Part shown: positions 9,099 to 64,000 of the stretch, one piece after another
How the letters are laid out: the number at the start of each line of letters is the position of its first letter
Position numbering within the stretch: the stretch's first letter is position 1
Assembly: GCA_035526025.1 (NCBI GenBank)
Contig: DATLDE010000012.1
Span: forward strand, 20,222-84,221
Reading direction: 5' to 3'
DNA from: Candidatus Limnocylindrales bacterium
GTDB taxonomy: Bacteria; Patescibacteriota; Microgenomatia; Levybacterales; UBA12049
DNA: 64,000 nt
The notes under the pieces: model-generated
What the model was told of the DNA's origin: nothing
The model's input: the letters and a program-made list of their open reading frames with translations, nothing else
Databases searched by the model: none
Translations under genes and position numbers: made by a program

Positions 9099-10607
9099 CT
9101 ATTTTAAATAGTTTTTATTCTTAACTTTTATCCAACACAAGCCGATTACAAATGCAAATAAGAGTTGACCTTGTTGGAGCGTCAGCCAGTAGTGATCAAA
9201 TATCCCAATTATTAAAATTGCAGAAAGAACTATTAACAAAGTGCTTCTGACTTCTGACTTCTGACTTCTGACTTTGTAAAAGGTTTTTGTTAAAAACCAT
9301 ATAAAAAGTCCCAGCCCGATAAGTCCTGTCTCTGCTGCTACGAGCAAAAATATATTATGAACCGGCTGAAGATAAGTGGAGGTGGTTAAAGGTTTCTGGA
9401 TCTCAGCAAGGCTTGGGAGAAATTGACCAAGCCCAACACCAATTAGGGGAGACTTCCCAATCATCTTAACTGAGGAATCTATAAGGGTTGTTCTTTGAAC
9501 AATCGCCTCATCATTTGTTTTTATATTTGTGAACCTTGATCCAATCGGACTGAATATAAAAATACTAATTATTCCGGATATAAAAATTAAGACCACAGCC
9601 ATCTTAATCTTGAATCTATCCTTTTTTAAGTTCCAAAACGCATCGTGCTCAATTCTACCGTACAGCTGAGCTTCTTCGTCCTTCTCCAGAGGAGGGATTA
9701 GGCGTGAAATCCAAAACCAAATTAAAACTACCATCCACGCTACAATCGCAATTCTGCTCATCGTAAGAAATAAAGCAATTGTGCCAAGCGCAAGTGTTGT
9801 TGCTTGAATTAAGAAGGAAGAATTAAGAATTATGAGATTAATCATTCGCTGGACAAGACTTGCTTCTTGCTTCTTGCTTCCTGCTTCTTTTTTTAACTTT
9901 TGAAACTTCAGTGAAAACAATACCAAGATCATCGCAACCAGCAGATAACCAGCCAAAACGTTTGGATGGGGGAGGGTACCATATGCTCTTAGCACAAGCT
10001 CCCCATTCAACGACGCATTCGCAATTCCTGGTGTGCCTGAATTAAAAGATCTCTCGCCCAAAAAATATAATAGGCGCCCAATTGATCCTTTATTCAAAAA
10101 TTGCGTTATCGCAATTACAGACTCAGTGATTGCCCCAAAGCTTAATGCAAAAATAATTTTTTGGAAAATATTTTTACTTACTATAAATTTGGCGCTGTAG
10201 TACGCTACAAAGGCCATTTCTAGCAATTTGAACAAACTGTAAAGACTTCCTAGTCTTCTTCCAGAAATTAGAATATTAATGACCAGAAACACAACGATAA
10301 ACATAAGGAATAAAAACAACTTAGATTTTTTTAAGTTTTTAGTTTTAAGCTTTAAGTTTGCTCTTGAACCTTTTCCAAATGCCCTAGGTAACCACAATAC
10401 AAAAATAAACAACACGAGAAGGTCGGTAAGATATACGGTGGGGGAGAGATAATCAATTCTGATGCCCCGTACATATGCAAAATCCGGCCAGAAGTGTTTG
10501 CCTAGCTGAGTTGGGATTAAAAAGACTAAGGAGTAAAAAAGAAATGATTCTATTCGAGAAGCTATTGTTGAATCTGGAATTAGAGGTTTGTAATTTTTAA
10601 TTTTCAA
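9099..10607 (-). CDS. O-antigen ligase/polymerase-like polytopic membrane protein (Wzy_C-like); start codon uncertain (TTG)
   Basis: 502 aa with ~12 TM helices and a central large loop, typical of O-antigen ligase-like proteins. The first in-frame start after the stop is TTG. Contains three 7-nt x4 tandem repeat tracts in K-rich loops. Confidence 0.45.
   Translation of the reverse strand: MKIKNYKPLIPDSTIASRIESFLFYSLVFLIPTQLGKHFWPDFAYVRGIRIDYLSPTVYLTDLLVLFIFVLWLPRAFGKGSRANLKLKTKNLKKSKLFLFLMFIVVFLVINILISGRRLGSLYSLFKLLEMAFVAYYSAKFIVSKNIFQKIIFALSFGAITESVIAITQFLNKGSIGRLLYFLGERSFNSGTPGIANASLNGELVLRAYGTLPHPNVLAGYLLVAMILVLFSLKFQKLKKEAGSKKQEASLVQRMINLIILNSSFLIQATTLALGTIALFLTMSRIAIVAWMVVLIWFWISRLIPPLEKDEEAQLYGRIEHDAFWNLKKDRFKIKMAVVLIFISGIISIFIFSPIGSRFTNIKTNDEAIVQRTTLIDSSVKMIGKSPLIGVGLGQFLPSLAEIQKPLTTSTYLQPVHNIFLLVAAETGLIGLGLFIWFLTKTFYKVRSQKSEVRSTLLIVLSAILIIGIFDHYWLTLQQGQLLFAFVIGLCWIKVKNKNYLK
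9244..9274. repeat. Heptanucleotide tandem repeat (CTTCTGA)x4 inside coding sequence (coding sense AAGTCAG x4)
   Basis: Four perfect units read directly from the sequence at 9244-9271. They encode KVRSQKSEVRS in a loop of the membrane protein. Confidence 0.9.
9861..9888. repeat. Heptanucleotide tandem repeat (TGCTTCT)x4, one variant unit, inside coding sequence
   Basis: Read directly from the sequence; encodes KKEAGSKKQEAS. Confidence 0.9.
10329..10356. repeat. Degenerate heptanucleotide tandem repeat (TTTTAAG-like)x4 inside coding sequence
   Basis: Units ttttaag / tttttag / ttttaag / ctttaag; encodes NLKLKTKNLKK. Confidence 0.8.
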
Positions 10608-12679: not shown

Positions 12680-12790
12680 GAAGGTGAGTATACCATAACA
12701 ATTGACAGTTCACAATTAACAACTTGGGCATTAATTAAGGAGATATATTGTTAAAGGTTAAAAGTTAAATGTCAATTGCTAAACTGCCTC

Positions 12791-33150: not shown

Positions 33151-34959
33151 TTATTTGCTGGCTTTTTTAAATATCATTACCGTTGGGCGGTCAAAAACCA
33201 TTGCAGTTTCTTCAAATCTAAATACAGGGTCGTTAAGGTAGGTGATGCGGCAGAAAATATCACATGGTGTTTGATATATCTTTTCCCATTGTTCGCTATT
33301 TATTAATTCGGAATAGAACAAATGTCCATTGGGGAATTTAGCCCTTTTTGGCAAACGGGAAATGAGAAGTCTTTGGCTTGGTAAAATCATATATTCTGTT
33401 GAGCTCAAATCTTCTTTGAGTTTTTGTTGCGTAAACTCAGGTGAGTTATTGTCCAGCTCATAAAAATTAAACATATTAATAGGATCGCTAAAATTAAAGG
33501 GTATCAGTCCCAAATCATAAGGTTCACTCATAACCTTAGAACTAAAAGGTATATTTAATTTTGCAAATTCACTAGCAATAACTCTTGTGTCCGGTCTTGC
33601 AAAAGCTGTTATAAAATATGAAACTCCGAACAGAATATTTAAACCTAAAAAAATACTAAATACTAAATACCTAATTCTTAATACTTGTTTCTTTCTATCC
33701 ACCAAATCCCATAAGTGCGCAAACGCAAGGGATAGCGTTAAGTACATGAATGGGAGCGCGGGTACTATGTAGCGGGTCCATTTGGCAAAAAGAACCGCTT
33801 GAGGTAAGAAAAGGGTTAAGAAATAAAAATTAAGAAGTAAGAGCGGCACGCTTTTGGTCTTAGCCGCTTGGAATAATAGATACAAGAATGCTGGCACAAA
33901 CATGGCTGTGAGTAGAGGATTTAAAATGAATGGGAAAATCCTATTAAATTGAAAAATAATCGGAATTGTGTCGTAAAACCCTTGGGTATAAAAAACAGGA
34001 AGTGAGCCGAGGGCGAGACCCGATTCATACTTCATGCTATTAAGAAATGATTGATAGTCAAAGTGGACAAAGGGATTGCTGATAAAATAAGTTGCTGTCG
34101 CAACGGCAGCAAAAAATAATATACGGATTATAGCTTTAGTAAAGCGTTTCATGTGGAGAGATAATGTGTTTTTTGGGTCATTATGTTTTGTTCGAAAAGT
34201 TGCATGGTAATATTGAAAATCCTTGTAAAGAATAGCAATAATTGGCAAAGGAAGGATCAGAATGTGAGAAATTTTTGTGGCAATAAGTATCCCGCTTATT
34301 ATCGCGAGAAGAAAAATATTGGATGCAGTAAGCTTCTCTATGCAGCGTAAGCAAAGCCAGAAGAGGAGTGTAGTGAAAAATGTCAGCCACATTTCAAACG
34401 TTCCGAAATGTGCGAATTGAATAAAGCCAACGCTAAATGCCGCAAAAAATGCAGCCAAAAGGCCAGTTTTCGTACCCTTCAAATTTTTACCGATAAGATA
34501 GAGCAAGGGGATAAGAAGTGTTGAAAAAAAAGCGGAGTAAACCCGACTTATGACTATTGCCTGCTCAAAAGATGATTTACAATCAGCAATTAACAATTGA
34601 CAGGACGTAAAAAAGTTATAAATAAGGCCAGAAAAATAAATTGCATAAATAGGCAAAGAACCATAAGCAAAAAAATTAGGATTCATTTGCTCTGGAAATC
34701 TTAACTGCGCAACGGCAGTTGCGATATTACGCTCATCAGGGTGGAAATAAAATGGAGCCCCCCAGTTGAGATTGTAAAATCTCAAACAAACACCGATTAA
34801 AATTAAAGCTAATAAGACAATGTTTATTATTCGAGCTTGTCGAGAACTTCTCGATTCGCTTTGCTCACTCGAAGAAGATGGCATAGACTTTATTGTAGTA
34901 GCTTTCAGCCTCGTTGACAAATGGCTTATAAGATGATATATTTCAGCCCATGGCATCAT
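33151..34959 (-). CDS. GT-C fold glycosyltransferase (family 39-like), paralog 3
   Basis: 602 aa with FHPDERNIA (DE motif in first loop), many TM, and a C-terminal soluble domain ending ...VMIFKK like paralog 2 (...VMIFKKR). Confidence 0.55.
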   Translation of the reverse strand: MMPWAEIYHLISHLSTRLKATTIKSMPSSSSEQSESRSSRQARIINIVLLALILIGVCLRFYNLNWGAPFYFHPDERNIATAVAQLRFPEQMNPNFFAYGSLPIYAIYFSGLIYNFFTSCQLLIADCKSSFEQAIVISRVYSAFFSTLLIPLLYLIGKNLKGTKTGLLAAFFAAFSVGFIQFAHFGTFEMWLTFFTTLLFWLCLRCIEKLTASNIFLLAIISGILIATKISHILILPLPIIAILYKDFQYYHATFRTKHNDPKNTLSLHMKRFTKAIIRILFFAAVATATYFISNPFVHFDYQSFLNSMKYESGLALGSLPVFYTQGFYDTIPIIFQFNRIFPFILNPLLTAMFVPAFLYLLFQAAKTKSVPLLLLNFYFLTLFLPQAVLFAKWTRYIVPALPFMYLTLSLAFAHLWDLVDRKKQVLRIRYLVFSIFLGLNILFGVSYFITAFARPDTRVIASEFAKLNIPFSSKVMSEPYDLGLIPFNFSDPINMFNFYELDNNSPEFTQQKLKEDLSSTEYMILPSQRLLISRLPKRAKFPNGHLFYSELINSEQWEKIYQTPCDIFCRITYLNDPVFRFEETAMVFDRPTVMIFKKASK

Positions 34960-51268: not shown

Positions 51269-51281
51269 AAAACTTAATAAG

Positions 51282-51304
51282 AACCCGGGAAACCGGGTTT
51301 TTTG
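51282..51304 (+). terminator. Rho-independent terminator after tuf
   Basis: aacccgg-GAAA-ccgggtt perfect 7-bp stem with tetraloop, followed by a T5 run. Confidence 0.7.
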
Positions 51305-51330
51305 TTCTTTAAAAGTTTGTTAGGAGACAT

Positions 51331-51639
51331 ATGCCGAAAGGAAGAATCAGAGTCAGATTAAAAAGTTATGACGCACGCGTCTTAGATGCTTGTTGTCAGC
51401 AAATTCTTGATTCCGTAATCAGAACAGGCGCCAAAGTTATTGGTCCAGTTCCGCTTCCAACAGACAGATCCCTATACGCTGTAAACAAATCACCTTTTAT
51501 TGACAAAGACGCAAGAGATCATTTCGAAATTAGAGTTCATAAAAGGCTGATTGATATTATGTCGCCAACAGACAAAACTATTGACAGTTTGACAAATCTA
51601 TCACTCCCAGCAGGAGTTGATGTTGAGTTGAAAATGTAG
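51331..51639 (+). CDS. rpsJ: 30S ribosomal protein S10
   Basis: MPKGRIRVRLKSYDARVLD...; SD AGGAG 8 nt upstream. Confidence 0.95.
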   Translation: MPKGRIRVRLKSYDARVLDACCQQILDSVIRTGAKVIGPVPLPTDRSLYAVNKSPFIDKDARDHFEIRVHKRLIDIMSPTDKTIDSLTNLSLPAGVDVELKM

Positions 51640-51755
51640 TTTTAATTTAATAATAGATGCCCAAAACAATTAAATACATGGTAGATCGATTAAAAATGCT
51701 TAAGCTAAGCCACCCCGATTAGAGGGGATCAGATCACAAAGGATTGTGAAATATG

Positions 51756-51787
51756 ATGATAGCCTTAAGGGGTTATCATTTTTTTTT
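51756..51787 (+). terminator. Strong intrinsic terminator/attenuator hairpin 30 nt upstream of rplC, inside the S10 operon
   Basis: atgatagcc-ttaagg-ggttatcat: 9-bp stem (one G.U pair), 6-nt loop, followed by 8 T. Confidence 0.55.
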
Positions 51788-51816
51788 GACGAAAAAACAA
51801 AACAAATAAAATTATT

Positions 51817-52746
51817 ATGATAAGTACACTAATTGGACAAAAATTAAATCAAGCACAGGACTTTTACCAAAATGGCAAAAGAGTCCCTGTCACAGAAATT
51901 GTAGTGTCTGAAAATGTTGTTTTACAAGTTAAAACAACCGACAAGGATTCATATTCTGCTATTCAGCTTGGGTATGGCAACAAGAAAAAGCCGATCAAGG
52001 CTCTGTTAGGGCACTCAAAAAAAGCTGGAGTAAAGCATGCGCCATTAAAAGCTCGGGAAGTATCAGTTAAAGATGTAGCAGAAGACGAGATGCCTAAAAC
52101 CGGTGATTTGATCAAAGTTGACGCTGTATTCAAGCCAGGAGATATAGTCCAGGTTAGCGGAATTTCAAAAGGAAAGGGTTTTGCAGGAGGAGTTAAGAGA
52201 CATGGTTTTAAAGGGGGCCCCAAGACTCATGGTCAGTCAGACAGGCACCGAGCTCCTGGATCAATCGGTCAGGGAACAACTCCTGGAAGAGTATATAAGG
52301 GAAAAAGAATGGCTGGTCGTATGGGTTCTGACACCGTGACGCTTAAAAACTTAACAGTAGTTGATGTGGATGCTGATAATAACAGGCTCTATATCAGTGG
52401 TCTTGTGCCAGGACACAGAAATTCGTTGGTATATGTCACAAAGACTGGTGAGAGAAAAAACTTTGTTCAACTCCTTTCATCATTTGAAAAAGAAGAAGCA
52501 GAGTCAAACGCAGCTGAGGCAAAAGCTGCAGAAGAGGCAGCCAAGGTAGTCGAGGAAGCGCCTGTTGTTGAGACGCCAGCTGAAGAAGCAAAAGTTGATG
52601 AAGCGGTAGCCGAAGAAGCACCAACAAATGAAGAAAAAACTGAAGCAGCAGCAGGCTCAGCTGATGAGAAAGTTGTTGAGGAAGAAAAGCCAGCTGAGGT
52701 AATAGAAGATGCACCTATTGAAAAGGAGGAAAAGAAAGATGCCTAA
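51817..52746 (+). CDS. rplC: 50S ribosomal protein L3 with ~100-aa acidic Glu/Ala/Lys-rich C-terminal extension
   Basis: L3 core (MISTLIGQKLNQAQDFYQNGKRVPVTEIV ... GKGFAGGVKRHGFKGGPKTHGQS) plus an EEAESNAAEAKAAEEAAK... tail. Confidence 0.9.
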   Translation: MISTLIGQKLNQAQDFYQNGKRVPVTEIVVSENVVLQVKTTDKDSYSAIQLGYGNKKKPIKALLGHSKKAGVKHAPLKAREVSVKDVAEDEMPKTGDLIKVDAVFKPGDIVQVSGISKGKGFAGGVKRHGFKGGPKTHGQSDRHRAPGSIGQGTTPGRVYKGKRMAGRMGSDTVTLKNLTVVDVDADNNRLYISGLVPGHRNSLVYVTKTGERKNFVQLLSSFEKEEAESNAAEAKAAEEAAKVVEEAPVVETPAEEAKVDEAVAEEAPTNEEKTEAAAGSADEKVVEEEKPAEVIEDAPIEKEEKKDA

Positions 52747-53548
52747 GGAAAGTTCAAAGTTGAAAGTTCAAAGCGCAAAGCCAAAAAAGCTGCCAGTAAA
52801 GAGCAAAACTGTAGCAGCTAAAAAAACGCCAGTTGTTAAAAAAGAGGCAACAGTTAAAGCTGTCACGCCAGTTGTAAAAGCAAAGGTTGTTGAGAAAAAG
52901 GAAAACTCTCTCTCAATAAGTGTTTATGATCTTCAAGGAAAAGTGTCTGGTAAGGTATCTCTGAGCTCTGAGATCTTTGGACAACCGATAAATAAAAAAC
53001 TTCTCGCACAAGCTGTAAGAGTTTATCAGGCAAATAAAAGACAAGGAAATGCGTCAACAAAAACCAGGGGAGAAGTAGACGGATCAACACGCAAGATTTA
53101 TAGACAAAAAGGAACAGGAAATGCGCGTCACGGATCACTCAGAGCACCTATCTTTGTAAAGGGTGGAATAGTACATGGGCCAAAGCCACGGGATTTTAAT
53201 CTTGAACTCCCAAAAAAGATGAGAAGAAAAGCGCTTTTATCAGCACTTTCCGGAAAATTTGCAGATTCAGAGATAAGAGTTGTGTCAGGATTTGAAAAAA
53301 TTGATGCAAAGACAAAGGGATTTGCAGTAGTTCTTAAGAGCCTTACTCTTGATTCCAAAAAAGGCAAATTGTTACTTATTACACCAGACAGTTTTGAAAG
53401 CGTAAAAAGAGCTTCCGGAAATATAACTGGCGTAAATAGTACCTCAGCAAATAGGCTTAATGCTCTTGAGGTTTTAAGACACAAGAATTTATTGATTGCA
53501 AAAGAATCAATTGCTGAGATGGAGAAATTTTTATTAAAAAATGAATAA
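52739..53548 (+). CDS. rplD: 50S ribosomal protein L4 with ~65-aa Lys-rich N-terminal extension
   Basis: Start ATG at 52739 overlaps the rplC stop (ATGCCTAA), with SD AAGGAGGA upstream. L4 core from ...SVYDLQGK. Confidence 0.85.
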   Translation: MPKESSKLKVQSAKPKKLPVKSKTVAAKKTPVVKKEATVKAVTPVVKAKVVEKKENSLSISVYDLQGKVSGKVSLSSEIFGQPINKKLLAQAVRVYQANKRQGNASTKTRGEVDGSTRKIYRQKGTGNARHGSLRAPIFVKGGIVHGPKPRDFNLELPKKMRRKALLSALSGKFADSEIRVVSGFEKIDAKTKGFAVVLKSLTLDSKKGKLLLITPDSFESVKRASGNITGVNSTSANRLNALEVLRHKNLLIAKESIAEMEKFLLKNE

Positions 53549-53867
53549 TATTAATCAAAACGTAATCATAAAACCAATTGTTACTGAGAAATCAATGCAG
53601 GGAAACTTAGGAAAATACACTTTTTTGGTTGCGCATTCTGCAACAAAAGCTGAGATCAGAAGTGCTTTTAAAAAGTTTTTTTCAGTAAATATCGTTTCGA
53701 TCTCAACAAGCAAGGTAAAGGGAAAAAGAAAAAGAATCGGTGCAAGAAGAGTTGAGGTAAATGATTCATTAACTAAGAAAGCAACAATCCTTTTGAAAAA
53801 AGGTGAAAAGTTATCAATTTTTGAATCAGGAGAAGACAAGAAAGAGAACAAAAAGAAAAAGAAATAA
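53541..53867 (+). CDS. rplW: 50S ribosomal protein L23
   Basis: IIKPIVTEKSM...YTFLVAHSATKAEIRSAF; K-rich C-tail. Confidence 0.9.
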   Translation: MNNINQNVIIKPIVTEKSMQGNLGKYTFLVAHSATKAEIRSAFKKFFSVNIVSISTSKVKGKRKRIGARRVEVNDSLTKKATILLKKGEKLSIFESGEDKKENKKKKK

Positions 53868-53894
53868 TACATTCGGCAAGCTCAGTATAAAATT

Positions 53895-54650
53895 ATGAAA
53901 AGCTTAAAAACTATTAAAAAGAAAAATTCAGGCAGAGATGCAAGCGGACAGGTAGCTGTTAGGCATCAGGGCGGACAGCATAAGAGATTTTTAAGAGCAA
54001 TTGATTTTAAAAGAGACAAGATTGGAATAAAGGGAAAAGTTATAGCAATTGAATACGATCCCAACAGAAGTTGTGATATCGCACTTGTTCAATATACAGA
54101 CGGCGAGAAGCGATACATATTGAGTCCCTCAGGACTGAAGATAAATGATATAATAAGATCCGGTAAAAATTCAGATGTGTCTTTGGGTAATTCGCTGACA
54201 CTTGCTGAGATGCCAGTTGGGACGATAGTTCACAATATAGAGATCACACCCGGAAAGGGTGGTCAGATCGCAAGAGGGGCCGGAACAGGCGCAATCGTAA
54301 CAGCCAAAGAAGGAGAATTTGCACATCTTAAGTTGCCATCAGGCGAGATGCGTAAATTCAGAATGGATGCACAAGCTACGATAGGACAACTTGGTAATGC
54401 TGATTGGAAAAATGAAGTAATTGGAAAAGCAGGAAGAGCCAGGAACATGGGAAGACGTCCAACCGTCCGAGGAGTGGCTCAAAATCCAAGATCTCACCCA
54501 CATGGTGGAGGAGAAGGACGATCTGGAATTGGTATGCCAGGACCAAAAACATATGCAGGTAGGTCAGCAGTTGGAAATACAAGAAAGAAGAAGAAGTACT
54601 CAGATAAATATATTCTAAAGAGAAGAAAAACAAAGAGGGGACAGAAATAA
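53895..54650 (+). CDS. rplB: 50S ribosomal protein L2 (N-terminally short)
   Basis: [14 protein letters not shown]...[25 protein letters not shown]...GGGEGR. An in-frame stop 27 nt upstream of the ATG precludes a longer N-terminus. Confidence 0.9.
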
Positions 54651-54651
54651 T

Positions 54652-54936
54652 ATGGGAAGAAGTATTAAAAAAGGACCATACATAGACGAAAAATTGATGA
54701 AGAAGGTTATGCTGCAAAAAGCAGGCAGTAACCGGGATGGAATTAAGACTTGGGCAAGAGCTTGCCAAATTCCACCAGAGTTCGTAGGACACACATTTAT
54801 GGTCCATAATGGTAAGAACTTCATAAAAGTCCTAGTTAGTGAAAATATGGTCGGTTACAGGCTTGGTGAATTCGCGCCAACAAGAACATTTAGAGGTCAT
54901 GGAAAAGTTGTTTCAAGAGAGGTAAGTAAGACTTAA
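54652..54936 (+). CDS. rpsS: 30S ribosomal protein S19
   Basis: [12 protein letters not shown]...[15 protein letters not shown]. Confidence 0.95.
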
Positions 54937-54940
54937 TACT

Positions 54941-55405
54941 ATGCAAGTAAGAGCAGTAGCAAAATCAGTTAGAATGAGTCCAAGAAAAATTCGCTTAGTT
55001 GCGGACGCGATAAGGCAGCTTTCAATAGCTGATGCTTTTCAGATTCTTGAAGCAACCCAGAATAGAGCAGCTGGTCCGATTTCAAAGACTCTTGAGTCAG
55101 CAGTTGCGAATGCAGTCACAAATAACAACTTGGACAAACAAAATTTGATAATTGAGAGTATCATGGTCAATGAAGGGCAGGCTTTAAAAAGATTCCATCC
55201 CTCATCCCGCGGACGAGTGCATCCTTACAAAAAAAGAAGCAGTCACATCACAATTGTTTTGAAGGAAAAAGCTGTTAAAAAAGTAGCAGTTGCAAAAGTA
55301 GACAATAAACAAGCAAAAAAAGATGATAAAAAAGAAACAGTATTTGTTAAGAAGACAAAAGATAAATCCATTCGGCAAGCTCAGGACAAGGGAGGTAATA
55401 AATAA
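54941..55405 (+). CDS. rplV: 50S ribosomal protein L22 with K-rich C-terminal extension
   Basis: MQVRAVAKSVRMSPRKIRLVADAIRQLSIADAFQILE... Confidence 0.93.
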   Translation: MQVRAVAKSVRMSPRKIRLVADAIRQLSIADAFQILEATQNRAAGPISKTLESAVANAVTNNNLDKQNLIIESIMVNEGQALKRFHPSSRGRVHPYKKRSSHITIVLKEKAVKKVAVAKVDNKQAKKDDKKETVFVKKTKDKSIRQAQDKGGNK

Positions 55406-56049
55406 TGGGACAGAAAATTAATCCACACGTCGTCAGACTTGGAAATGTATTTAGCTGGTCAAGCCGCTGGTTTGATGAGAAAAAGTACAAAGAAACGCTT
55501 TTTCAGGACTATACTCTTCGAAAAATGCTTATGGACAAGCTAAGAGGAGCTGGAGTTGCAAAAGTTGAGATTGAGCGATCAATCAACAGTTTGAAAATTA
55601 TTATCTTTGTTTCGCGTCCCGGAATAGTTATCGGACGAGGGGGATCTGGACTTGAAGACTTGAAAAAAAGCATTACAAAGTTCTTTATCAAGCAAAAAGG
55701 ATCAAATATGCCAAAGCTTGATATAAGAGTAGAGCCTGTAAAAGAGCCAAATCTTGATTCGTATTTGGTAGCAACAAATATCTCAGATCAGCTGATAAGA
55801 CGATTACCATACAAGAGAGTCCTAAATAGCACAGCAGAGCGCGTTATGGGATCTGGTGCAAAGGGAGTAAAGATCTTGTTGGCTGGAAGAATTGCAGGCT
55901 CAGAAATTGCAAGACGTGAGAAAATAAGGCTTGGAACTGTTCCATTATCAACCATAAGAGAGAATATCGCATACTCAAGCTACGCATGCTTGACCAAAAA
56001 AGGATATATCGGAATAAAGGTTTGGATCAACAAACCAGAGGAGAAATAA
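55405..56049 (+). CDS. rpsC: 30S ribosomal protein S3
   Basis: [14 protein letters not shown]... KH domain; SD GGGAGG upstream. Confidence 0.95.
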
Positions 56050-56053
56050 AATT

Positions 56054-56467
56054 ATGTTAATGCCAAGAAGACAAAAGTATAGAAAGCAAATGAGAGGAAG
56101 CATGAAAGGAAATGCGCTGCGGGGCATTAAGCTTTCATTTGGAGACTTTGGACTCCAAACCCTTGAGACTGCCTGGATATCTGCAAGACAAATTGAAGCT
56201 GGAAGACGGGCTATCACTCACTATACGCAAAGAGGTGGAAGGGTCTGGATCAGGATATTTCCTGATAAGCCGATCAGCAAGAAGCCAGCTGAAGTTAGAA
56301 TGGGTGGAGGAAAAGGTGATACGCATGAGTATGTTGCACCAGTCAGGCCTGGCAGAATGCTCTTTGAGATATCAGGTGTAACACATGAAATAGCAAAAGA
56401 AGCTTTGAGACTTGCGTCACATAAATTACCAGTTAAAACAAGATTTGTATTTAAAGGAGAAAGATAA
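56054..56467 (+). CDS. rplP: 50S ribosomal protein L16
   Basis: [15 protein letters not shown]... Confidence 0.95.
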
Positions 56468-56470
56468 ATT

Positions 56471-56731
56471 ATGAAATTAAATATTAAAAAAGAATTACAC
56501 ACTAAATCATTAGCTGAGCTGAGAGCTCAACTGAAAGTGGCAAAAGAGGAAAAACGCGTACTGAATCTTGATCACGAGATGGGAAAATTAAAAAACACCA
56601 GTGCGGTTAATCAGAAAAGAGTTGAAATTGCCGTGATCAGCACAATTATAAAAGAGAAAACAACTGAAGCCGAAGCGCTTGCAGCAAAAGCATTAGTCAG
56701 TGAAATTAAAGAAAAAGGAGGTAAAAAATGA
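56471..56731 (+). CDS. rpmC: 50S ribosomal protein L29
   Basis: LHTKSLAELRAQLKVAKEEKRVLNL... Confidence 0.85.
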   Translation: MKLNIKKELHTKSLAELRAQLKVAKEEKRVLNLDHEMGKLKNTSAVNQKRVEIAVISTIIKEKTTEAEALAAKALVSEIKEKGGKK

Positions 56732-56970
56732 GTAAAGTATTAGTAGGAAAAGTAGTATCTATAAAAATGACAGACACTGTGCTTGTGGAGGTAACCCGAA
56801 GAACCCCTCACAAGCTATACGGAAAGCTAATAAAGAGAAGCAAGAAATTTAAAGTTGCTTTGAATGGACTCGCACCAGTTATCGGTAATACTGTAAAGAT
56901 TGAAGAAACCAAACCAGTTTCAAAAGAAAAGTATTTTAAATTGATTGAGATTGAGGAGAAAAAAATATGA
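56728..56970 (+). CDS. rpsQ: 30S ribosomal protein S17
   Basis: [30 protein letters not shown]... Confidence 0.9.
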
Positions 56971-57341
56971 TACAGCTTAGAAGCATAATAAATAGCGCAG
57001 ATAACTCGGGAGCCAAGCAACTTGCCGTGATACACGTTTATGGTGGATCAAAGCATAAATTTGCCAGAATTGGGGATGTTATCCACTGCGTTGTAAAAGA
57101 AGCTGCACCAAACGGGCAGGTAAAAGATAGTGAGATGGTAAAATGCGTTGTTGTCAGAACCAGAAAAGAATTCAGACGAGCTGACGGGTCATATATCCGC
57201 TTCTCAGATAACGCAGCTGTAGTAATTGACAATGCCAAGGATAAAAACGTTCGAGGAACTAGGATCTTTGGCCCAATTGCAAGAGAAGTAAAAGATCGCG
57301 GATTTGCAAAAATTGCCAGTATGGCAACAGAAGTTTTATAG
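56967..57341 (+). CDS. rplN: 50S ribosomal protein L14
   Basis: [24 protein letters not shown]... Confidence 0.95.
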
Positions 57342-57351
57342 AAATAAATAT

Positions 57352-57657
57352 ATGAAATTAATAAAAGGAGACATAGTTAAAGTAGTAGCAGGAAAAGATA
57401 GCGGTAAAACCGGCAAGATTGAGCGAACAGACTCTAAAAAGGGAAGAGTTCTTGTTGAAGGTGTCAATCAATACAAGAGACACATTAAAGCTAAGATGGC
57501 TGGTCAGAAATCAGAAATTATCACGATTACAAAGAGCTTGCCAGTATCAAATGTTGCATTGCTTTGTCCGAAATGCAAAAAGCAGACAAGAATAGGCTAC
57601 AAGGTCTTAAAAGAAGGAAAAAGCAGAATTTGCAAGAAATGTAATAAAGAAATATGA
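57352..57657 (+). CDS. rplX: 50S ribosomal protein L24 (KOW) with C-terminal CxxC...CxxC zinc-ribbon-like extension
   Basis: Start placed at MKLIKGDIVKVVAGKDSGKTGKI (ATG at 57352; the ORF-track start at 57304 overlaps rplN). C-terminal CPKCKKQTRIGYKVLKEGKSRICKKC. Confidence 0.85.
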   Translation: MKLIKGDIVKVVAGKDSGKTGKIERTDSKKGRVLVEGVNQYKRHIKAKMAGQKSEIITITKSLPVSNVALLCPKCKKQTRIGYKVLKEGKSRICKKCNKEI

Positions 57658-58208
57658 CAGACTTACGAAAAAGATACACAGAAGACATGGTTACAAAACT
57701 TCAGAAAAAACTGAATGTTAAAAATCCAATGAGTGTTCCAAAGCTCTCAAAGATAGTTATCAACATGGGTGTTAAAGACGCTGTTGCTGACAAAAAGAAC
57801 ATTGATAAGATGAGCACTGTTCTGACACAAATTACAGGACAAAAAGTCAAAGTGACACGTGCTAAAAAAGCTATTGCTAGTTTTAAGCTTAGAATTGGTG
57901 ACCCGATTGGTCTAGTTGCAACTCTTAGAGGGGCAAGAATGTATGATTTTTATGACAAAGTAGTCAAAATTGTCCTTCCAAGAATAAAAGACTTCAGAGG
58001 AGTCAAAAGAACAAGTTTTGATAAATCAGGAAATTATACTTTGGGACTTCGTGAATATTCTGTATTTCCAGAAATTGATCCGGGAAGTGTCGAGAAGCTT
58101 CAGGGAATGGAAGTGGTTATTGTAACAACAGCAAAAAACACAAATGATTCGTTGGCGCTTCTTGAAGAATTAGGTATGCCTTTTACGAAGGAGGCAGCAA
58201 AAGAGTAA
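57654..58208 (+). CDS. rplE: 50S ribosomal protein L5
   Basis: ...PKLSKIVINMGV...; 184 aa. Confidence 0.93.
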   Translation: MTDLRKRYTEDMVTKLQKKLNVKNPMSVPKLSKIVINMGVKDAVADKKNIDKMSTVLTQITGQKVKVTRAKKAIASFKLRIGDPIGLVATLRGARMYDFYDKVVKIVLPRIKDFRGVKRTSFDKSGNYTLGLREYSVFPEIDPGSVEKLQGMEVVIVTTAKNTNDSLALLEELGMPFTKEAAKE

Positions 58209-58255
58209 TAATAGGAGAAAGTGTGCTATAATCGTGCGTAGCAAAATATAATAAT

Positions 58256-58441
58256 ATGGCTAAGAAATCAAACGTAGTTCAATCAGCAAAAAAACCAAAA
58301 TTCTCGAGTAGAATTGTTAATCGCTGTGGAATTTGCGGAAGATATCGTGGCTATTACAGAAGATTTGGATTGTGCAGAATTTGTTTTAGAGAAAGAGCGA
58401 TGAAAGGAGAATTGCCAGGCGTGCTAAAAGCCAGCTGGTAA
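58256..58441 (+). CDS. rpsZ: 30S ribosomal protein S14 type Z (zinc-binding)
   Basis: 61 aa; [20 protein letters not shown]. Confidence 0.93.
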
Positions 58442-58449
58442 ATAAATAT

Positions 58450-58830
58450 ATGTATCATGACTTTGTTATTCAACTAAAAAATGCGGCAATGGCTCGTAAA
58501 AAAGATATCGTAACGCCATACGCGAACCTAAATAAAGCAATTGCAAAAGCGCTTATTAAAGAAGGGTTTTTGGAGACTGTTAAAGAAGAGACAGAGGATG
58601 GCAAAAAATCTCTTACTGTTCGTCTTCGCTACCAAAGACGAAAGCCGGCTATTACTGATTTATTGCTTATCTCGAAACCATCTCTTCGAAAATATGTAAC
58701 AACTGGCGAGATCGCAAGAATTCAGGGAAAAGCAACAGTTGCAATTCTTTCAACAAACACAGGCGTAATATCAGGAAGGGAGGCAATAAAGAAGGGCGTT
58801 GGAGGCGAGCTATTATTCAAGATCTGGTAA
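58450..58830 (+). CDS. rpsH: 30S ribosomal protein S8
   Basis: 126 aa; ...LKNAAMARKKDIV...IAKALIKEGFL... Confidence 0.9.
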   Translation: MYHDFVIQLKNAAMARKKDIVTPYANLNKAIAKALIKEGFLETVKEETEDGKKSLTVRLRYQRRKPAITDLLLISKPSLRKYVTTGEIARIQGKATVAILSTNTGVISGREAIKKGVGGELLFKIW

Positions 58831-58934
58831 CAGGTTTTGTTTAAACTTAGTAACCAGCCTTAATATCAAAGATTAAAAATCAAATATTAAAAATATTTTT
58901 GATCTTTTATATTTAATTTTTTATTTTTTAACAT

Positions 58935-59489
58935 ATGTCAAAAGTCGGAAAATTACCAATCACTATTGCCAATGGAGTTAACCTCACTGATTCTGAAAAA
59001 TCTGTACAGGTAACAGGACCTAAAGGATCAGCAACTGTAAATAAGCCTGAAGGACTTGATCTTGCAGTAAATGAGGGAATAGCAGTAGTGAGCGCTAAGG
59101 ATCCAAATGACAAAAAAATAAGAGCAATGTTCGGGATGTTCAGAGCCAATTTAGCAAACGCTGTAAAAGGAGTAGACACAGGATTTGAAAAAAAACTTGA
59201 GATGACAGGAGTTGGATATCGAGCAGTTATTCAGGGAGCTGATCTGGTTCTCTCAGTTGGTTACTCACATCCTGTAAAATTCAGCCCAAAAGAGGGAATA
59301 AAATTGGCAGTTGCAGATAATGTGATTTCAGTATTGGGAATAGATAAAGCAATGGTTGGGGAAATGGCTGCTGAAATAAGAGCAGTCCGCCCACCAGAAC
59401 CATACAAAGGAAAAGGAATAAGGTATCAGGGAGAATATATTAGAAGAAAAGCCGGTAAGGCAGCAAAAGCAGCAGGAGCAACCAAATAA
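58935..59489 (+). CDS. rplF: 50S ribosomal protein L6
   Basis: MSKVGKLPITIANGVNLT...VTGPKG. Confidence 0.93.
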   Translation: MSKVGKLPITIANGVNLTDSEKSVQVTGPKGSATVNKPEGLDLAVNEGIAVVSAKDPNDKKIRAMFGMFRANLANAVKGVDTGFEKKLEMTGVGYRAVIQGADLVLSVGYSHPVKFSPKEGIKLAVADNVISVLGIDKAMVGEMAAEIRAVRPPEPYKGKGIRYQGEYIRRKAGKAAKAAGATK

Positions 59490-59493
59490 TAAT

Positions 59494-59838
59494 ATGAATA
59501 TTAAAACTACAAGACTCAAAAGACAAACAAGAATCAGAAAAAAAGTAAGTGCAAGTTCAGACCGTGTGAGACTTTCTGTATTCCGTTCAAACAAGTATAT
59601 CTATGCACAGATAATTGATAAAAATGGTGACACTTTGATGGGAATTTCTGAAAAAGCATTAGCAGCAAAAGGAAAGGTCACACCAACAGAACGGGCAAAA
59701 GAGCTTGGAGTAGCAATTGCAAAGTTGGCGCTTTCCAAAAAAGTCAAAGAAGTAGCTTTTGATAAAGGAAGATTCTCATATCATGGAAGAGTTGAAGCTG
59801 TTGCAACTGGTGCAAGAGAAGGAGGGTTGAAATTCTAA
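59494..59838 (+). CDS. rplR: 50S ribosomal protein L18
   Basis: ...RLSVFRSNKYIYAQIID... Confidence 0.9.
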   Translation: MNIKTTRLKRQTRIRKKVSASSDRVRLSVFRSNKYIYAQIIDKNGDTLMGISEKALAAKGKVTPTERAKELGVAIAKLALSKKVKEVAFDKGRFSYHGRVEAVATGAREGGLKF

Positions 59839-60347
59839 TGAGACAACGACCACAAAATCGATTAAATTCAACACCTAGTGAATTTGAGGAACTGATTGTT
59901 CAGATCAATAGAGTTTCTAAGAAAACAAAGGGTGGAAATAAAGTTGGTTTCTCAGCGCTGACTGTAGTAGGGGACAAAAAGGGAAAAGTAGGCGTAGGGC
60001 TTGGTAAAGCTCCAGACGTTGCGGCTGCAATTCGTAAGGGAATCTCACAAGCAAAAAAACACTTGGTTGATGTGCCACTTGTTAATGGTTCAATTCCTTT
60101 TAGAATTGACATAAAGCTAGGTGCTGCAAGAATCATGCTTAAGCCTGCTCCTCATGGATCAGGGGTTATTGCAGGTGGATCTGTGAGAAGTGTCGTGACC
60201 TTAGCTGGAATTGAGAATATCTCATCCAAAGTCTTGGGCACAAGAAACAAAATCAGCAATATCTATGCAACGCTTGAAGCTTTGAGACGAGTTAGTGAAA
60301 GAGGCCAGAAGCAAAAAGACAGATTGGAAGCAAAAGGAAAGAATTAA
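59838..60347 (+). CDS. rpsE: 30S ribosomal protein S5
   Basis: ...ELIVQINRVSKKTKGGNKVGFSALTVVGD... Confidence 0.93.
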   Translation: MRQRPQNRLNSTPSEFEELIVQINRVSKKTKGGNKVGFSALTVVGDKKGKVGVGLGKAPDVAAAIRKGISQAKKHLVDVPLVNGSIPFRIDIKLGAARIMLKPAPHGSGVIAGGSVRSVVTLAGIENISSKVLGTRNKISNIYATLEALRRVSERGQKQKDRLEAKGKN

Positions 60348-60352
60348 AATAT

Positions 60353-60790
60353 ATGAACTTAAATAATCTTGAAAAAATAACAACTAAAAAGAAACGACGC
60401 GTAGGGCTAGGTCACGGTTCAGGACGTGGAAAAACCAGTGGACGGGGAACTAAAGGTCAAAAAGCCAGAGGAGATGTGCCGCTAGATTTTGAGGGAGGAG
60501 CGCTTCCTCTTATAAAGCGTCTTCCATTTCTCCGGGGAAAAGGAAAAAACAAAACATTTAGAAAAGATCCATATGTTATAAATGTTGGTCTTTTGAATAC
60601 GCTTCCAAAAAATTCAACTGTTGATATTGAAAGTCTTGCAAAACTAAGACTTGTAAATCTTGAGGACGCAACTAAAAACGGCGTTAAGATATTGGGAGAT
60701 GGGGAACTATCTGTAGCGCTGACTGTTAAGCTTCCTGCATCAAAAAGCGCTATTGAGAAAATTACAAAAGCAGGAGGAAGCGTAGTTTAG
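60353..60790 (+). CDS. rplO: 50S ribosomal protein L15 (follows S5 directly; no L30 gene)
   Basis: ...RRVGLGHGSGRGKTSGRGTKGQKAR... Confidence 0.9.
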   Translation: MNLNNLEKITTKKKRRVGLGHGSGRGKTSGRGTKGQKARGDVPLDFEGGALPLIKRLPFLRGKGKNKTFRKDPYVINVGLLNTLPKNSTVDIESLAKLRLVNLEDATKNGVKILGDGELSVALTVKLPASKSAIEKITKAGGSVV

Positions 60791-60867
60791 TAATTAGTAT
60801 TTTGTATTTAGTAATTTCTTGTTTTACTCTATACTAGATATTAGCTACGAAACATCTTTCCAAGAAC

Positions 60868-62154
60868 ATGAATAGCTTTCTCGACACTCTCAAAAATGCA
60901 TTTAGGTCCCAAGACATCAGAAAGAGGATCCTCTTTACCCTCGGCATATTTCTTGTATTTAGATTCCTAGCACATATTCCGGTATCAGGAGTTGATGTAG
61001 TAGCTCTTAAAAATCTTTTTGCGGGCAATCAATTTTTGGGATTATTAAATATTTTCTCTGGCGGAACCCTGGCCAATTTCTCAATTATGGCCCTTGGGCT
61101 TAATCCATACATTAACGCATCAATTATTCTCCAGCTTTTGACTATGGTTTTTCCAAAGCTTGAAGAGCTCTCAAAAGAAGGAGAGTCAGGGAGAAGGAAG
61201 ATCAATCAATATACGAGATTTTTGACAATTCCACTTGCAGCTCTTCAGGCTATTGGAATGTATGCCTTGTTAAGAAGTCAGGGAATTGTGACAACTCTTC
61301 AGCCTATTACTTTCGTTGCGTTTATTGCAACGCTGGTCGCGGGGACAATGTTTTTGGTTTGGCTTGGGGAACTTATTACAGAACGAGGAGTGGGAAATGG
61401 AATATCTCTTATGATTTTTGCTGGTATCGTAGGAGGCTTCCCTGTGTTATTTGGACAGACTATTTCAACAGCAACTGCTGAAAATTCACTAAGTCTTATT
61501 ACTCTTGTTGGGCTTGGGTTGGTTGTTGTAGCAGCTGTTATCCTGATGACTGAGGCAACCAGGCAAATTACAGTTTTCTATGCAAAAAGAGTCCGCGGAA
61601 ATAAGATGAGTGGGGGAGAGTCTACTCACCTTCCATTAAGACTAAATCAAGCAGGGGTTATACCTATTATTTTTGCGGTATCAATTGTTTTATTGCCCTC
61701 TCTTCTTGCTAATTTTTTCCAGGCTTCCAAGAACCCGCTTTTAGCTGGATTTGCACAAAACGTAAATATTTGGTTTGCACCAAGTAGTATTCCATATAAT
61801 GTGTTATATTTTCTTTTGGTTGTTGGTTTCACTTTTTTCTATACTGCTATTGTATTTAATCCTAAAAAAATCTCAGAAGAGATCCAGAAGCATGGAGGAT
61901 TTATACCAGGTATAAGACCAGGTGGGCCAACGACTAAATACCTTAATTATATTTTAACAAGAATAACTCTAGCGGGCGCATCCTTTCTAGGTATCATAGC
62001 AATTCTTCCTGAAATCGCTAGATCAATAACCGGGGTGCAAACTCTTTTAATTGGAGGTACAAGTATTTTGATTATTGTCAGCGTGGTTTTGGAAACATTT
62101 AAGGCAATTGAAGCAAAACTCGTAATGCGTAATTACGAAAGCTTTCTGAAATAA
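60868..62154 (+). CDS. secY: Preprotein translocase subunit SecY
   Basis: 428 aa, 10 TM, conserved SecY core; follows rplO. Confidence 0.93.
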
Positions 62155-62156
62155 TT

Positions 62157-62696
62157 ATGAAGATAATTCTTATTGGAATCCAAGGATCAGGCAAATCTAC
62201 ACAAGGCACACTTCTGTCTAAAAAACTCGGCGTACCATATCTTTCAACAGGACATATTTTCCGTTCCATGGCCAAGGAACATACTCCACTTGGCAGGCAG
62301 ATAAAAGTTGTTATGAATGCAGGCCTTCTTATATCTGATGCCAAGACCCTGAAAATTGTAAGCGAGTACTTGGGAAGAATCGAATACAAAGACGGCTATA
62401 TTCTTGATGGTTTTCCAAGGACATTGGGGCAAGTAAAAGCATTCAAAAATGGAATTGATAAGGTTGTTTATTTAAAAATAACAGATAAAGAAGCTCTTTG
62501 GAGAATATCAGGACGGGACGGAGAGGCTAGAGAGGACGAAACCCTGATGGCTGTTCGGAAAAGAATTGACTCATTTCATAAATTTACAGAGCCTGTTCTT
62601 GAGCATTATAAGAAGAAAGGTAACCTCATAGAAATTGATGGTGAACAAAAGGTTGAAAAAATCCACAAAGAGATAATGCAAAAGCTTAAAAAATAA
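62157..62696 (+). CDS. adk: Adenylate kinase (short form, no zinc lid)
   Basis: MKIILIGIQGSGKSTQG P-loop; 179 aa. Confidence 0.88.
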   Translation: MKIILIGIQGSGKSTQGTLLSKKLGVPYLSTGHIFRSMAKEHTPLGRQIKVVMNAGLLISDAKTLKIVSEYLGRIEYKDGYILDGFPRTLGQVKAFKNGIDKVVYLKITDKEALWRISGRDGEAREDETLMAVRKRIDSFHKFTEPVLEHYKKKGNLIEIDGEQKVEKIHKEIMQKLKK

Positions 62697-63388
62697 TGGC
62701 TGAGAATAAAGGATTTGTGATAGCAATTGATGGACCCGTCGCCTCAGGTAAAGGAGCTTTAGCTGCACAGCTTGCTAAAAAGCTTAAAGGATTCTATCTA
62801 TATACCGGTGCAATGTATAGAAGCGTTGCTTTCTTATGCATCGAAAAAGGAATTGATCTGGAAAATGAGAGCGATGTCGAATCAGTTTTATCAGATCTTA
62901 ATATAGAACTTGAAAACGACAGAGTAATACTTAACGGGCAAGATGTAACTGAAAGACTGAATGAGCCAGATACCGCAAGCGGTTCATCAGTTGTTGGGGT
63001 TTATCCAAATGTAAGGCAAGTAGCAGTTCTCAAGCAGCAGGAAATAGGGGAAAAAGCAATAAAAAATGGCAAGATAGTGGTTGCAGAGGGGCGTGACATA
63101 GGAACGGTGGTTTTTCCAAATGCGGCGGCTAAAATTTATCTAACAGCAAGACCGGAAATACGTGCAAAGAGACGGATGGAACAATTTATTACCCAGAAAA
63201 AAGATTTGACCAAGGAGCTGCAAAACTTAAAAACCAGGGATAAAAGAGATACCGAGCGGGAAGTAGGTCCTTTACCATCTGATCCTGAAAATCTAGGATA
63301 TTTTATTTTGGATAATTCAGATTTAACAGAAGACCAGACTATGGAAAAAGTACTTGGGGAACTTAAAAAGCGGAATTTAATAATATGA
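62696..63388 (+). CDS. cmk: Cytidylate kinase
   Basis: VIAIDGPVASGKGALAAQLAKKL; 230 aa; its TGA stop overlaps the map ATG (ATGA). Confidence 0.85.
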   Translation: MAENKGFVIAIDGPVASGKGALAAQLAKKLKGFYLYTGAMYRSVAFLCIEKGIDLENESDVESVLSDLNIELENDRVILNGQDVTERLNEPDTASGSSVVGVYPNVRQVAVLKQQEIGEKAIKNGKIVVAEGRDIGTVVFPNAAAKIYLTARPEIRAKRRMEQFITQKKDLTKELQNLKTRDKRDTEREVGPLPSDPENLGYFILDNSDLTEDQTMEKVLGELKKRNLII

Positions 63389-64000
63389 TAGATATTAAAA
63401 CAAAAAAAGAATTAGAAATAATGAAAACCGGAGGGCATATGCTTGCCGAAGTTCTAAATGATGTAATGAATGCAATAAAGCCTGGGGTTACGGAATTGGA
63501 ACTAGATCAGTTGGCTGAGAAGCTGATAAGGCAAAAAGGCGGTGAGCCGGGGTTTAAAAAAGTAAGAGGATATCATCACAGTATCTGCATGTCCACAAAT
63601 GATGTTGTGGTTCATGGAATTCCAGGGGGTTATGTAATCAAAGAAGGGGACGTGGTAGGGGTTGATTGCGGGGTATATTACAAAGGTTTTCATACGGATA
63701 TGGCTGAAACAATTCTCGTTTCAAGTCAAAAGTCAAAAGTCAAAAGTCAAAAGAATGTGGAGAAATTTTTAGAGGTTGGGAAGCAGGCGCATGAGGTGGG
63801 TGTAAAAGTAGCAGTAATAGGTAATAGAGTAGGTCATATTTCAAAAGCTATTCAGGATATTGTTGAGAGAGAATCAGGATACTCAGTCGTTCGCAGCCTG
63901 ATCGGTCATGGAGTGGGACGCGCGCTTCATGAGGATCCAGAAGTGCCAGGCTATTTGGTAGGTAGAATTGAAAAAACACCACTACTTCAGGAAGGTATGA
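63385..64000 (+). CDS. map: Methionine aminopeptidase type I, partial (C-terminus beyond window)
   Basis: MIDIKTKKELEIMKTGGHMLAEVL...GYHHSICMSTNDVVVHGIP...DCGVYYKGFHTDMAET; contains an in-frame heptamer repeat insertion. Confidence 0.85.
   Translation, partial: MIDIKTKKELEIMKTGGHMLAEVLNDVMNAIKPGVTELELDQLAEKLIRQKGGEPGFKKVRGYHHSICMSTNDVVVHGIPGGYVIKEGDVVGVDCGVYYKGFHTDMAETILVSSQKSKVKSQKNVEKFLEVGKQAHEVGVKVAVIGNRVGHISKAIQDIVERESGYSVVRSLIGHGVGRALHEDPEVPGYLVGRIEKTPLLQEGM
63723..63753 (+). repeat. Heptanucleotide tandem repeat (AAGTCAA)x4 + AAG inside map coding sequence
   Basis: Read directly from the sequence; encodes SQKSKVKSQK, inserted where MAPs normally have a short conserved loop. Confidence 0.9.

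Follow-up and report, generated by a model that had tools for sequence, protein, structure and literature searches.

Heptanucleotides are the most abundant class of long simple sequence repeats (SSRs) in most bacterial genomes; their excess has tentatively been attributed to polymerase slippage and to the length of the DNA that contacts the polymerase, and coding-region SSRs are reported as those whose units are multiples of three, at least as these results are relayed in two later papers (Mrazek 2007, as cited in PMC4692102 and PMC4679880). Among the families described since, the cyanobacterial short tandemly repeated repetitive (STRR) sequences and the GGGNATC repeats of Xanthomonas and Nostoc use few fixed G-rich units in mostly intergenic, often much longer arrays (PMC4692102). 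The TAACTGA repeats of marine Beggiatoaceae, cyanobacteria and Bacteroidetes come in sets of 2–6 copies, mostly a few nucleotides upstream of starts, including those of ribosomal-protein operons, with stops in three frames and rare in-frame copies at the periphery of proteins (MacGregor 2015, PMC4679880). Here we describe a heptanucleotide array inside map, the gene for type I methionine aminopeptidase (MetAP), in a Candidatus Limnocylindrales bacterium placed in the Levybacterales (Patescibacteriota), and a near-identical array in an O-antigen-ligase-family gene on the same 64,000-nt stretch of contig DATLDE010000012.1, which was analysed whole and is called the window throughout. Strand slippage combined with reading-frame selection is the best supported of the mechanisms that we weighed, and we consider it probable.

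The map array consists of 4.4 perfect head-to-tail copies of AAGTCAA over 31 nt (63723..63753, + strand; period 7 with 100% matches in Tandem Repeats Finder, TRF), a run beyond chance that, together with the genome-wide excess of period 7 described below, identifies it as a heptanucleotide microsatellite. An earlier note on this DNA, made from the letters alone, had reported an in-frame x4 tract here; its coordinates are exact, and its length needs correcting to 31 nt (x4.4) instead of 28. The gene (PF00557) starts at ATG 63385 on the + strand and continues past the window end, so that 63385..64000 hold its 5′ 205 codons; the complete protein, P0001, has 256 aa. All three frames of the unit are translated in turn into SQKSKVKSQK, in the context ...ETILVSSQKSKVKSQKNVEKF... 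(also given as ...HTDMAETILVSSQKSKVKSQKNVEKFLEVGK...), at residues ~113–123. The Peptidase_M24 domain PF00557 is present in all MetAP homologs, the metal-ligand motifs DCG...HTD, GHG and E...E are invariant in our MetAP alignment (A1), and P0001 matches the solved MetAP 3tb5 over its full length (E = 1.7e-49). In the AlphaFold model for this alignment, whose mean predicted local distance difference test (pLDDT) score is 89.8, the only marked dip in the region covers residues about 111–120 (mean 64), a coil joining strand 102–111 to helix 120–142, with residues 112–119 as the low-confidence loop itself, and the array-coded residues fall there. Compared with the solved structures 3tb5, 1o0x and 3tav, this MetAP has six extra residues exactly at the array loop; the array therefore sits in what the model depicts as a surface loop that is variable among bacteria, and the earlier suggestion that a conserved loop had been replaced does not hold. 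Levybacteria loops without an array measure 42–57 nt and those with one 60–78 nt, most commonly 69 nt.

The same loop is filled again and again in relatives, with changing units. Across 36 MetAP homologs (66–82% identity), it holds peptides resembling translated heptamers, such as QKLKVKSQK, SKFKVQS, DQRLKIKD, QKSEVRS, RNQESRT and NNSQLTINK, and the DNA of the 80 closest genome loci shows perfect or near-perfect heptamer arrays at this position in at least 20 species, built from at least 15 different units. AAGTCAA is shared by the window, L012 and L075; elsewhere the unit is AAAGTTC (L024, L001), CTCAAAA (L020, L077, L029, L019), TCAAATC (L026, L028), GAACCAA (L057), TCAAAAT (L039), GCAAAAA (L004), CCTCAAA (L016), AAGAGCA (L053), AAATATC (L015) or TCAAAGC (L003). 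On a MetAP tree from which the loop was excluded, array-bearing and array-less species are interleaved and unit identity does not track the tree. The map tract is thus not a recent copy-and-paste insertion. It had also been called unexpected in an essential gene, which is fair for a housekeeping gene such as map, but it is recurrent rather than unique, since 23 of the 102 coding arrays of period 7, 14 or 21 in all loci lie at the MetAP loop. Among ~200 homologs and loci, no allele was out of frame across it.

The second perfect tract, AAGTCAG x4.4, is likewise 31 nt long (9244..9274, − strand; TRF period 7, 100% matches, the unit being given as CTTCTGA on the + strand), and the earlier observation that the two units are nearly identical stands: they differ at one position. 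It lies in frame in the open reading frame (ORF) 9099–10607 (−), whose product is a membrane protein of the O-antigen-ligase family (PF04932 in the homologs), and codes VRSQKSEVRS in a loop between hydrophobic stretches. Two further arrays lie in the same gene on the − strand: a GAAGCAA type at 9859..9889 (91% matches in TRF) that codes KKEAGSKKQEAS and adjoins a weaker period-7 stretch (9806–9841), and a CTTAAAA type at 10329..10359 (83% matches in TRF) that codes ANLKLKTKNLK. Protein alignment places heptamer-coded peptides at the same three loops in ligase orthologs (44–61% identity), and at the DNA level three of these orthologs bear out the arrays of loops one and three; at the AAGTCAG loop these are a perfect ATGGCAA x4.4 (peptide MANGKWQMAN), GTCAGAA x3.7 and AATCAAG x4. 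Just upstream of the gene, 10587–10699 hold AT-rich repeats of periods 7, 22 and 47 with inverted symmetry.

Both tracts belong to a restriction of tandem repeats to period 7 that reaches well beyond them. Matches to AAGTCARAAGTCAR with at most one mismatch number seven in the window against 0.26 expected, a count reached by none of 100 shuffles. When periods 1–15 were scanned for exact repeats of both ≥18 nt and ≥2.5 units, only period 7 yielded any in the window (four); near-perfect 28-nt arrays were likewise found for period 7 only (three, against none in Markov shuffles). In the 80 closest genome loci (1.36 Mb; mostly Candidatus Levybacteria/Levyibacteriota or Patescibacteria, with a few Gottesmanbacteria), exact tandem repeats of ≥18 nt numbered 81 for period 7, one for period 6, two each for periods 8 and 14, and none for the remaining periods from 2 to 15, which makes the restriction a property of the lineage and not of the window. 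The earlier proposal of one generating process rather than independent drift is borne out, tandem repeats in this genome and its relatives being almost all heptamers, and the counter-explanation named with it, ubiquitous random low complexity, fails because heptamers are enriched in the window and in the related loci. Nor is the restriction confined to the candidate phyla radiation (CPR): a metagenome scan for (AAGTCAR)x4 returned at least 120 unrelated contigs with GC from 0.3 to 0.7, and 443 kb of unrelated contigs with AAGTCAR arrays held 93 other heptamer arrays against at most six of any other period. In some of these contigs, of 60–68% GC (L091, L102, L113, L115, L123, L144, L146 and others), AAGTCAG arrays run from 4 to 11 copies, and the AT-rich unit is out of character there. 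Array density is a genome-level trait: loci with a MetAP-loop array carry 1.95–3.2 other heptamer arrays per 10 kb against 0.58 in those without, a three- to fourfold excess (Spearman rho 0.51, p 3e-5). By a crude ORF-based split, arrays are ~20x denser outside long ORFs (154 in ~6% of the sequence against 102 in ~94%), and many intergenic arrays precede a start codon by a few nucleotides and carry stops in each frame.

How such arrays change in length is seen most directly in two MetAP genes of ~87% nucleotide identity (P0064 and P0088; an estimate from alignment A3), whose single loop gap is exactly 21 nt and separates GCTCAAAACTCGG, CTCAAAA x1.4, from AAACTCAAAACTCAAAACTCAAAACTCAAAACTCGG, CTCAAAA x4.4–4.9, a whole-unit copy-number change of three units between relatives. 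A difference of +7 aa in the loop likewise separates P0094 from P0096 and P0107, and where L004 has GCAAAAA x4.1, its tree neighbour L037, without an array, has 1.4 copies (GCAAAAAGCA). Because 7 is coprime to 3, only three-unit changes (21 nt, 7 aa) preserve the frame inside genes. Coding arrays peak sharply at 31 nt within a range of 20–37 nt, most of them 28–37, and these length classes fit frame selection, with visible states of ~1.x and ~4.x copies. Going down from 4.4 to 1.4 copies takes no more than a deletion between direct repeats of 10 nt. We rejected a special '4.x-copy' mode in non-coding DNA, which would have pointed to a length-setting mechanism: exact-run counts of 3.x and 4.x are about equal there, the length distribution in unrelated contigs simply declines, and the TRF peak is partly a score-threshold effect.

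The units themselves are drawn from a narrow set. On the sense strand, coding-array units are 47% A, 28% T, 17% C and 8% G and cluster around NNTCAAA; there are 41 distinct units in 54 coding arrays, and intergenic units are diverse too. In the best rotation, 9.5–11.7% of coding-array pairs fall within one mismatch, compared with 3% for random stop-free units of the same composition. With so narrow a repertoire and about six coding arrays in the window, a near-identical pair is likely, and copying need not be invoked for the likeness of the map and ligase tracts.

Near-identical strains show a further mode of change. Four Joint Genome Institute (JGI) contigs of one species are 99.5–99.8% identical over 20.8 kb, with mosaic single-nucleotide polymorphisms, and have only three internal indel regions, all three at heptamer-array loci (the MetAP loop and the S8–L6 and S13–S11 spacers). 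At the MetAP loop, L081 differs from L084–L086 (10316–10440) by replacement of a ~110-nt patch that includes ~25 nt of flanking codons per side, the alleles being AGATCAA x4.6 and GCAAAAA x2 + a 28–30-nt GC-rich insert + GCAAAAA x2; in both spacers, some strains have AT-rich palindromes with heptamer-like arms and others lack them. Independently of these four, L213 and L214, which agree at ~99% over 3.9 kb, have a divergent ~150-nt patch centred on the MetAP array. Overall, the swapped alleles span 110–150 nt with ~25–60 nt of flank on each side, between strains ~99% identical or more, and two loop allele classes, ETK(I/V)VQSSKFKVQ and ETRRVSEIKDQRLKIKD, recur across species backgrounds. Since the flank differences are mostly synonymous and ortholog-like, the patches look imported by recombination, not locally mutated, and to judge from the sequences the replacement looks like short-patch recombination centred on the array.

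We propose that Levybacteria, and other heptamer-rich bacteria, would multiply 7-nt units in tandem by slippage in replication or repair, the map loop switching back and forth between ~1.4 copies, its 'seed' state, and ~4.4 copies, with the step upwards assumed to be a multi-unit slip in one event. The frames of the unit would be read in turn to give a K/S/Q-rich peptide, and the array would survive thanks to its position, a disordered loop on the surface that links a β-strand to a helix. Any unit that brings a stop into one of the frames, or that codes for hydrophobic residues, would be filtered out, leaving a narrow, A-rich, NNTCAAA-like repertoire from which the likeness of the map and ligase tracts would follow, and array alleles would move between near-identical strains by short-patch homologous recombination. 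We infer both slippage as the molecular event and the neutrality of the peptide.

Several observations weigh against this proposal. Its main gap is the expansion from 1.4 to 4.4 copies, which needs either a multi-unit single event or a tolerated out-of-frame intermediate: a variant differing by a single unit was not seen anywhere, yet 21-nt steps alone cannot keep a perfect period-7 array uniform, so single-unit events must occur, although they would shift the frame of a gene that is presumably essential. The array loci of the four 99.5–99.8% identical strains differ by whole-block replacement and not by unit steps. Many arrays are perfect although their species are only 60–80% protein-identical, which requires a high rate of birth or of homogenization. 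Slippage does not predict the GC-rich palindromic inserts found in mid-array in several genes, and the concentration of 23 of 102 arrays at one MetAP loop, together with a covarying hairpin beside it, hints at something more specific than tolerance.

The rival that survives best, though we think it rather unlikely, is compatible with slippage and concerns what keeps the arrays: Lys-rich peptides would be useful, slippage being merely the route to them, and might add positive charge to a ribosome-contacting MetAP loop or to loops of the membrane protein. It would account for arrays at the same loops in dozens of species, for peptides that are nearly always K/S/Q/N-rich, for the position of the ligase arrays between hydrophobic segments and for the patch exchange of the loop allele between strains, as if it were selected. 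Yet many close relatives have no array and short neutral loops, some units code non-basic peptides (MANGKWQMAN, NNSQLTIN), and arrays are ~20x denser in non-coding DNA.

An active, lineage-specific element or enzyme that writes the arrays, which would then be its footprints or landing pads, seems unlikely; staggered 7-nt cuts with fill-in, target duplications by miniature hairpins and template switching between arrays are examples of how it might work. Speaking for it are GC-rich palindromic inserts of 16–62 nt that occupy the centre of ~4-unit arrays, with ~2 units per side, in MetAP and at other loci (L001, L007, L019 at two sites in opposite orientations, L020, L021, L036, L084). Such sites lie at L020 1592–1638, L019 2640–2686 and 10339–10417, L036 4337–4407, L007 10338–10394, L021 14045–14131 and L084 10345–10403; some are intergenic, and those inside genes are translated in frame. 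Several families, namely TCCGCC-loop-GGCGGA, TCAGCCTCTGGCTGA and CCGCTTCGCC...GCGAGGCGAG, recur across species and genes in both orientations, and TTCGGCAAGCTCAG is likewise counted among the mini-hairpin families. The same peptide motifs in MetAP and ligase loops, the genome-level density of arrays and the coincidence of all three indel regions among near-identical strains with array loci also favour a writer. Against it, units vary from array to array and so leave no fixed template; the P0064/P0088 array is multiplied local sequence; most arrays, including the map and ligase tracts, have no insert; and the window contains no TCCGCC..GGCGGA hairpin. No link to a transposase or reverse transcriptase was found, within a window whose genes were not systematically annotated, and a heptamer excess was already known in many unrelated bacteria. 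The idea that the arrays are target-site duplications of the GC-rich inserts gained no support, the left and right half-array units being different at L007 and L019.

A fuller version, which we consider similarly unlikely, would be an active, lineage-specific loop-remodelling system of which the arrays are working components and not passive microsatellites. Arrays of ~31 nt would be made in multi-unit steps, would offer landing pads or portable homology to GC-rich mini-hairpins later read in frame, and would be recombination hot spots at which near-identical strains swap whole loop cassettes of housekeeping proteins, with the map hairpin as part of the mechanism.

That the hairpin and the A-rich array together form a functional element in the map mRNA or DNA is quite improbable; it might be a pause site, a protein-binding site or a place where 7-nt re-pairing by the ribosome softens frameshift alleles. 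The window has a weak hairpin, GAAAC-AATTCTC-GTTTC, immediately 5′ of the array in the codons for E-T-x-x-V-S (63706..63722, +; −4.5 kcal/mol). In relatives these codons form a 7-bp stem, GAAACNN-NNN-NNGTTTC, and they also occur in L012, L017, L019, L020, L037, L042, L052, L081, L084 and L213, with compensatory changes at synonymous third positions (GAA..GTT against GAG..GTC; ACC..CGG, ACG..CGC and ACA..CGT). Among 15 related sequences chosen solely by the E-T-x-x-V-S peptide pattern, 92.4% of cells are paired, three pairs have changed on both sides and nine cells are compensatory; none of 500 shuffles reached this covariation score, and slid controls were only 21–56% paired. This covariation through synonymous changes is what speaks for an element, with the limit that the sequences are related and were picked by peptide pattern. 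The weakness of the window copy, the absence of the hairpin from ETK(I/V)VQSSKFKVQ array alleles, the marginal relation of hairpin strength to array presence (p 0.065) and the lack of an Rfam family match tell against it. A general link between arrays and adjacent hairpins was also tried and dropped: arrays overall are not enriched for them, the MetAP site alone showing one, and three ligase orthologs do not conserve the hairpin that precedes the window's ligase tract.

Templated insertion (by a retron, a diversity-generating retroelement (DGR) or an integrase), in which one tract served as template for the other or the two go back to a shared donor sequence, was among the mechanisms suggested in the earlier note, next to an integrase- or retron-like activity and a mini-satellite seed, and it is now highly improbable. 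The units do differ at one position only and both tracts are 31 nt. However, the flanks of the two tracts lack any similarity; orthologs at both sites carry other units; about 10% of array pairs are expected to agree within one mismatch anyway; AAGTCAR x4 arrays occur in the at least 120 unrelated contigs already mentioned; and the P0064/P0088 array is a threefold local multiplication of a heptamer already present at 1.4 copies. Around map, which is flanked by the ribosomal-protein operon, secY, adk and cmk, no reverse transcriptase or integrase gene was seen, the window ORFs not having been systematically annotated.

Collapse of a longer repeat to k = 31 during assembly, suggested by the exact 31 nt of both perfect tracts and by a k = 31 contig of the same organism that seems to end inside the map tract, can be set aside, as the reading frame of the gene is intact, tracts of this length class recur in dozens of independent assemblies, including the complete chromosomes L001 and L038, imperfect arrays have equal size, and a contig break is expected anyway where other AAGTCAA arrays share the sample. 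The contig in question, a Logan contig of SRR8554898 (12554 bp, window ~51200–63752), appears to end within the tract and has map called as a 122-aa fragment. Read as evidence of copy-number heterogeneity it is ambiguous, other AAGTCAA arrays in the sample breaking the k = 31 graph too.

The window holds ~12 period-7 arrays by TRF, three of them in the ligase gene in addition to the AAGTCAG tract and several in intergenic spacers of the ribosomal-protein operon. Besides those in map and the ligase-family gene, coding arrays include an AAAGTTC type in the Lys-rich stretch that extends ribosomal protein L4 at its N terminus (MPKESSKLKVQSAK...; 52749..52780, +; likely start ATG 52739) and an AGTATTT type, with 20 nt perfect, inside ORF 33151–34959 (33651..33685, −). 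Intergenic examples on the + strand are a TTAGTAA type in the L15/secY spacer (60787..60816) and a GTTAAAA type just upstream of ORF 12776–14218 (12750..12769). The S8–L6 spacer contains an intergenic AT-rich palindromic element (58865..58930, +) with complementary heptamer-like arms, ATCAAAG/ATTAAAA ... TATTTTT x5.3; over ~70 nt it runs from these arms into a T-rich stretch and folds at −10 kcal/mol (z = −2.3). Copies lie in relatives at L085 5464–5556 and L081 11623–11727, and the window element is, by an estimate from alignment A5, near-identical over ~70 nt to the copy in a species with 75% identical MetAP, among whose 99.5–99.8% identical strains it is present or absent; a similar element also comes and goes in the S13–S11 spacer.

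A GC-rich dispersed repeat, TTCGGCARGCTCAG, occurs three times in the window (176–189, −; 53872–53885, +; 55371–55384, +) against 0.02 expected, one site being in frame in an ORF near the window start, one in the L23–L2 spacer and one in the codons of the L22 C-terminal SIRQAQD. In L001 the same sequence is what interrupts the MetAP array, and its peptide appears in the ligase ortholog P0140. None of the window copies is inside the map or ligase tract. Transfer RNA and Rfam scans of the window gave no matches.

The abundance of bacterial heptamers has been known since 2007 with its cause still unexplained, and CPR genomes offer a clean natural experiment, with conserved single-domain enzymes whose loops carry arrays of a unit that changes between species, one observed transition of exactly three units, and near-identical strains that differ mainly at array loci. 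Three questions thereby become testable: how multi-unit steps arise when no frameshifted intermediate would be viable, what determines the period of 7 nt, and whether arrays drive local recombination and the insertion of small in-frame sequences. Heptamer tracts account for many of the Lys-rich insertions peculiar to single lineages of CPR proteins and are likely sites of contig breaks and frameshift errors in metagenome assemblies.

Set beside the systems described so far, the map tract resembles contingency loci of Haemophilus, Neisseria and Campylobacter in having a non-triplet unit inside an ORF, where a one-unit change shifts the frame, but contingency loci belong to dispensable surface or restriction genes, whose on and off alleles are seen among strains, whereas map is a housekeeping gene with no out-of-frame allele in ~200 homologs and loci; the combination of in-frame and out-of-frame alleles in a dispensable gene that marks phase variation is thus not seen. 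Rickettsia palindromic elements (RPEs) insert in frame in protein genes. They resemble solely the GC-rich mini-hairpin inserts of relatives, short dispersed palindromes that are translated within loops of conserved proteins, and not the two window tracts, which have no inserts; RPEs are also far longer than the 16–62-nt mini-inserts, and the latter sit inside heptamer arrays.

The closer parallels are the heptamer families with which we began. Levybacteria arrays share with STRR and GGGNATC repeats the period, the many copies per genome, and the filling of the same intergenic sites in related strains with varying length and sequence, but they are made of many A-rich units, rarely exceed five copies and are often coding (PMC4692102). 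Many of the intergenic arrays resemble TAACTGA repeats in placement; TAACTGA is one fixed unit, whereas Levybacteria use dozens and have in-gene arrays in internal loops of conserved enzymes (PMC4679880). The coding arrays thus have no single conserved unit of the TAACTGA or STRR type. With the SSRs of Mrazek (2007), in so far as the papers citing that survey describe them, they share a dominant 7-nt class, a lineage-specific excess and variable units; they differ in lying in frame in housekeeping genes, at the same loops phylum-wide, with the unit changing. We found no literature report of heptamer repeats in CPR bacteria. The map tract as such is something already known, a heptanucleotide microsatellite belonging to an unexplained class of bacterial repeats. 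What appears, as far as we could find, to be undescribed is its behaviour: throughout a CPR phylum, housekeeping proteins keep in-frame arrays at the same loops despite turnover of the unit, two close relatives differ there by three units, and strains exchange the arrays as patches.

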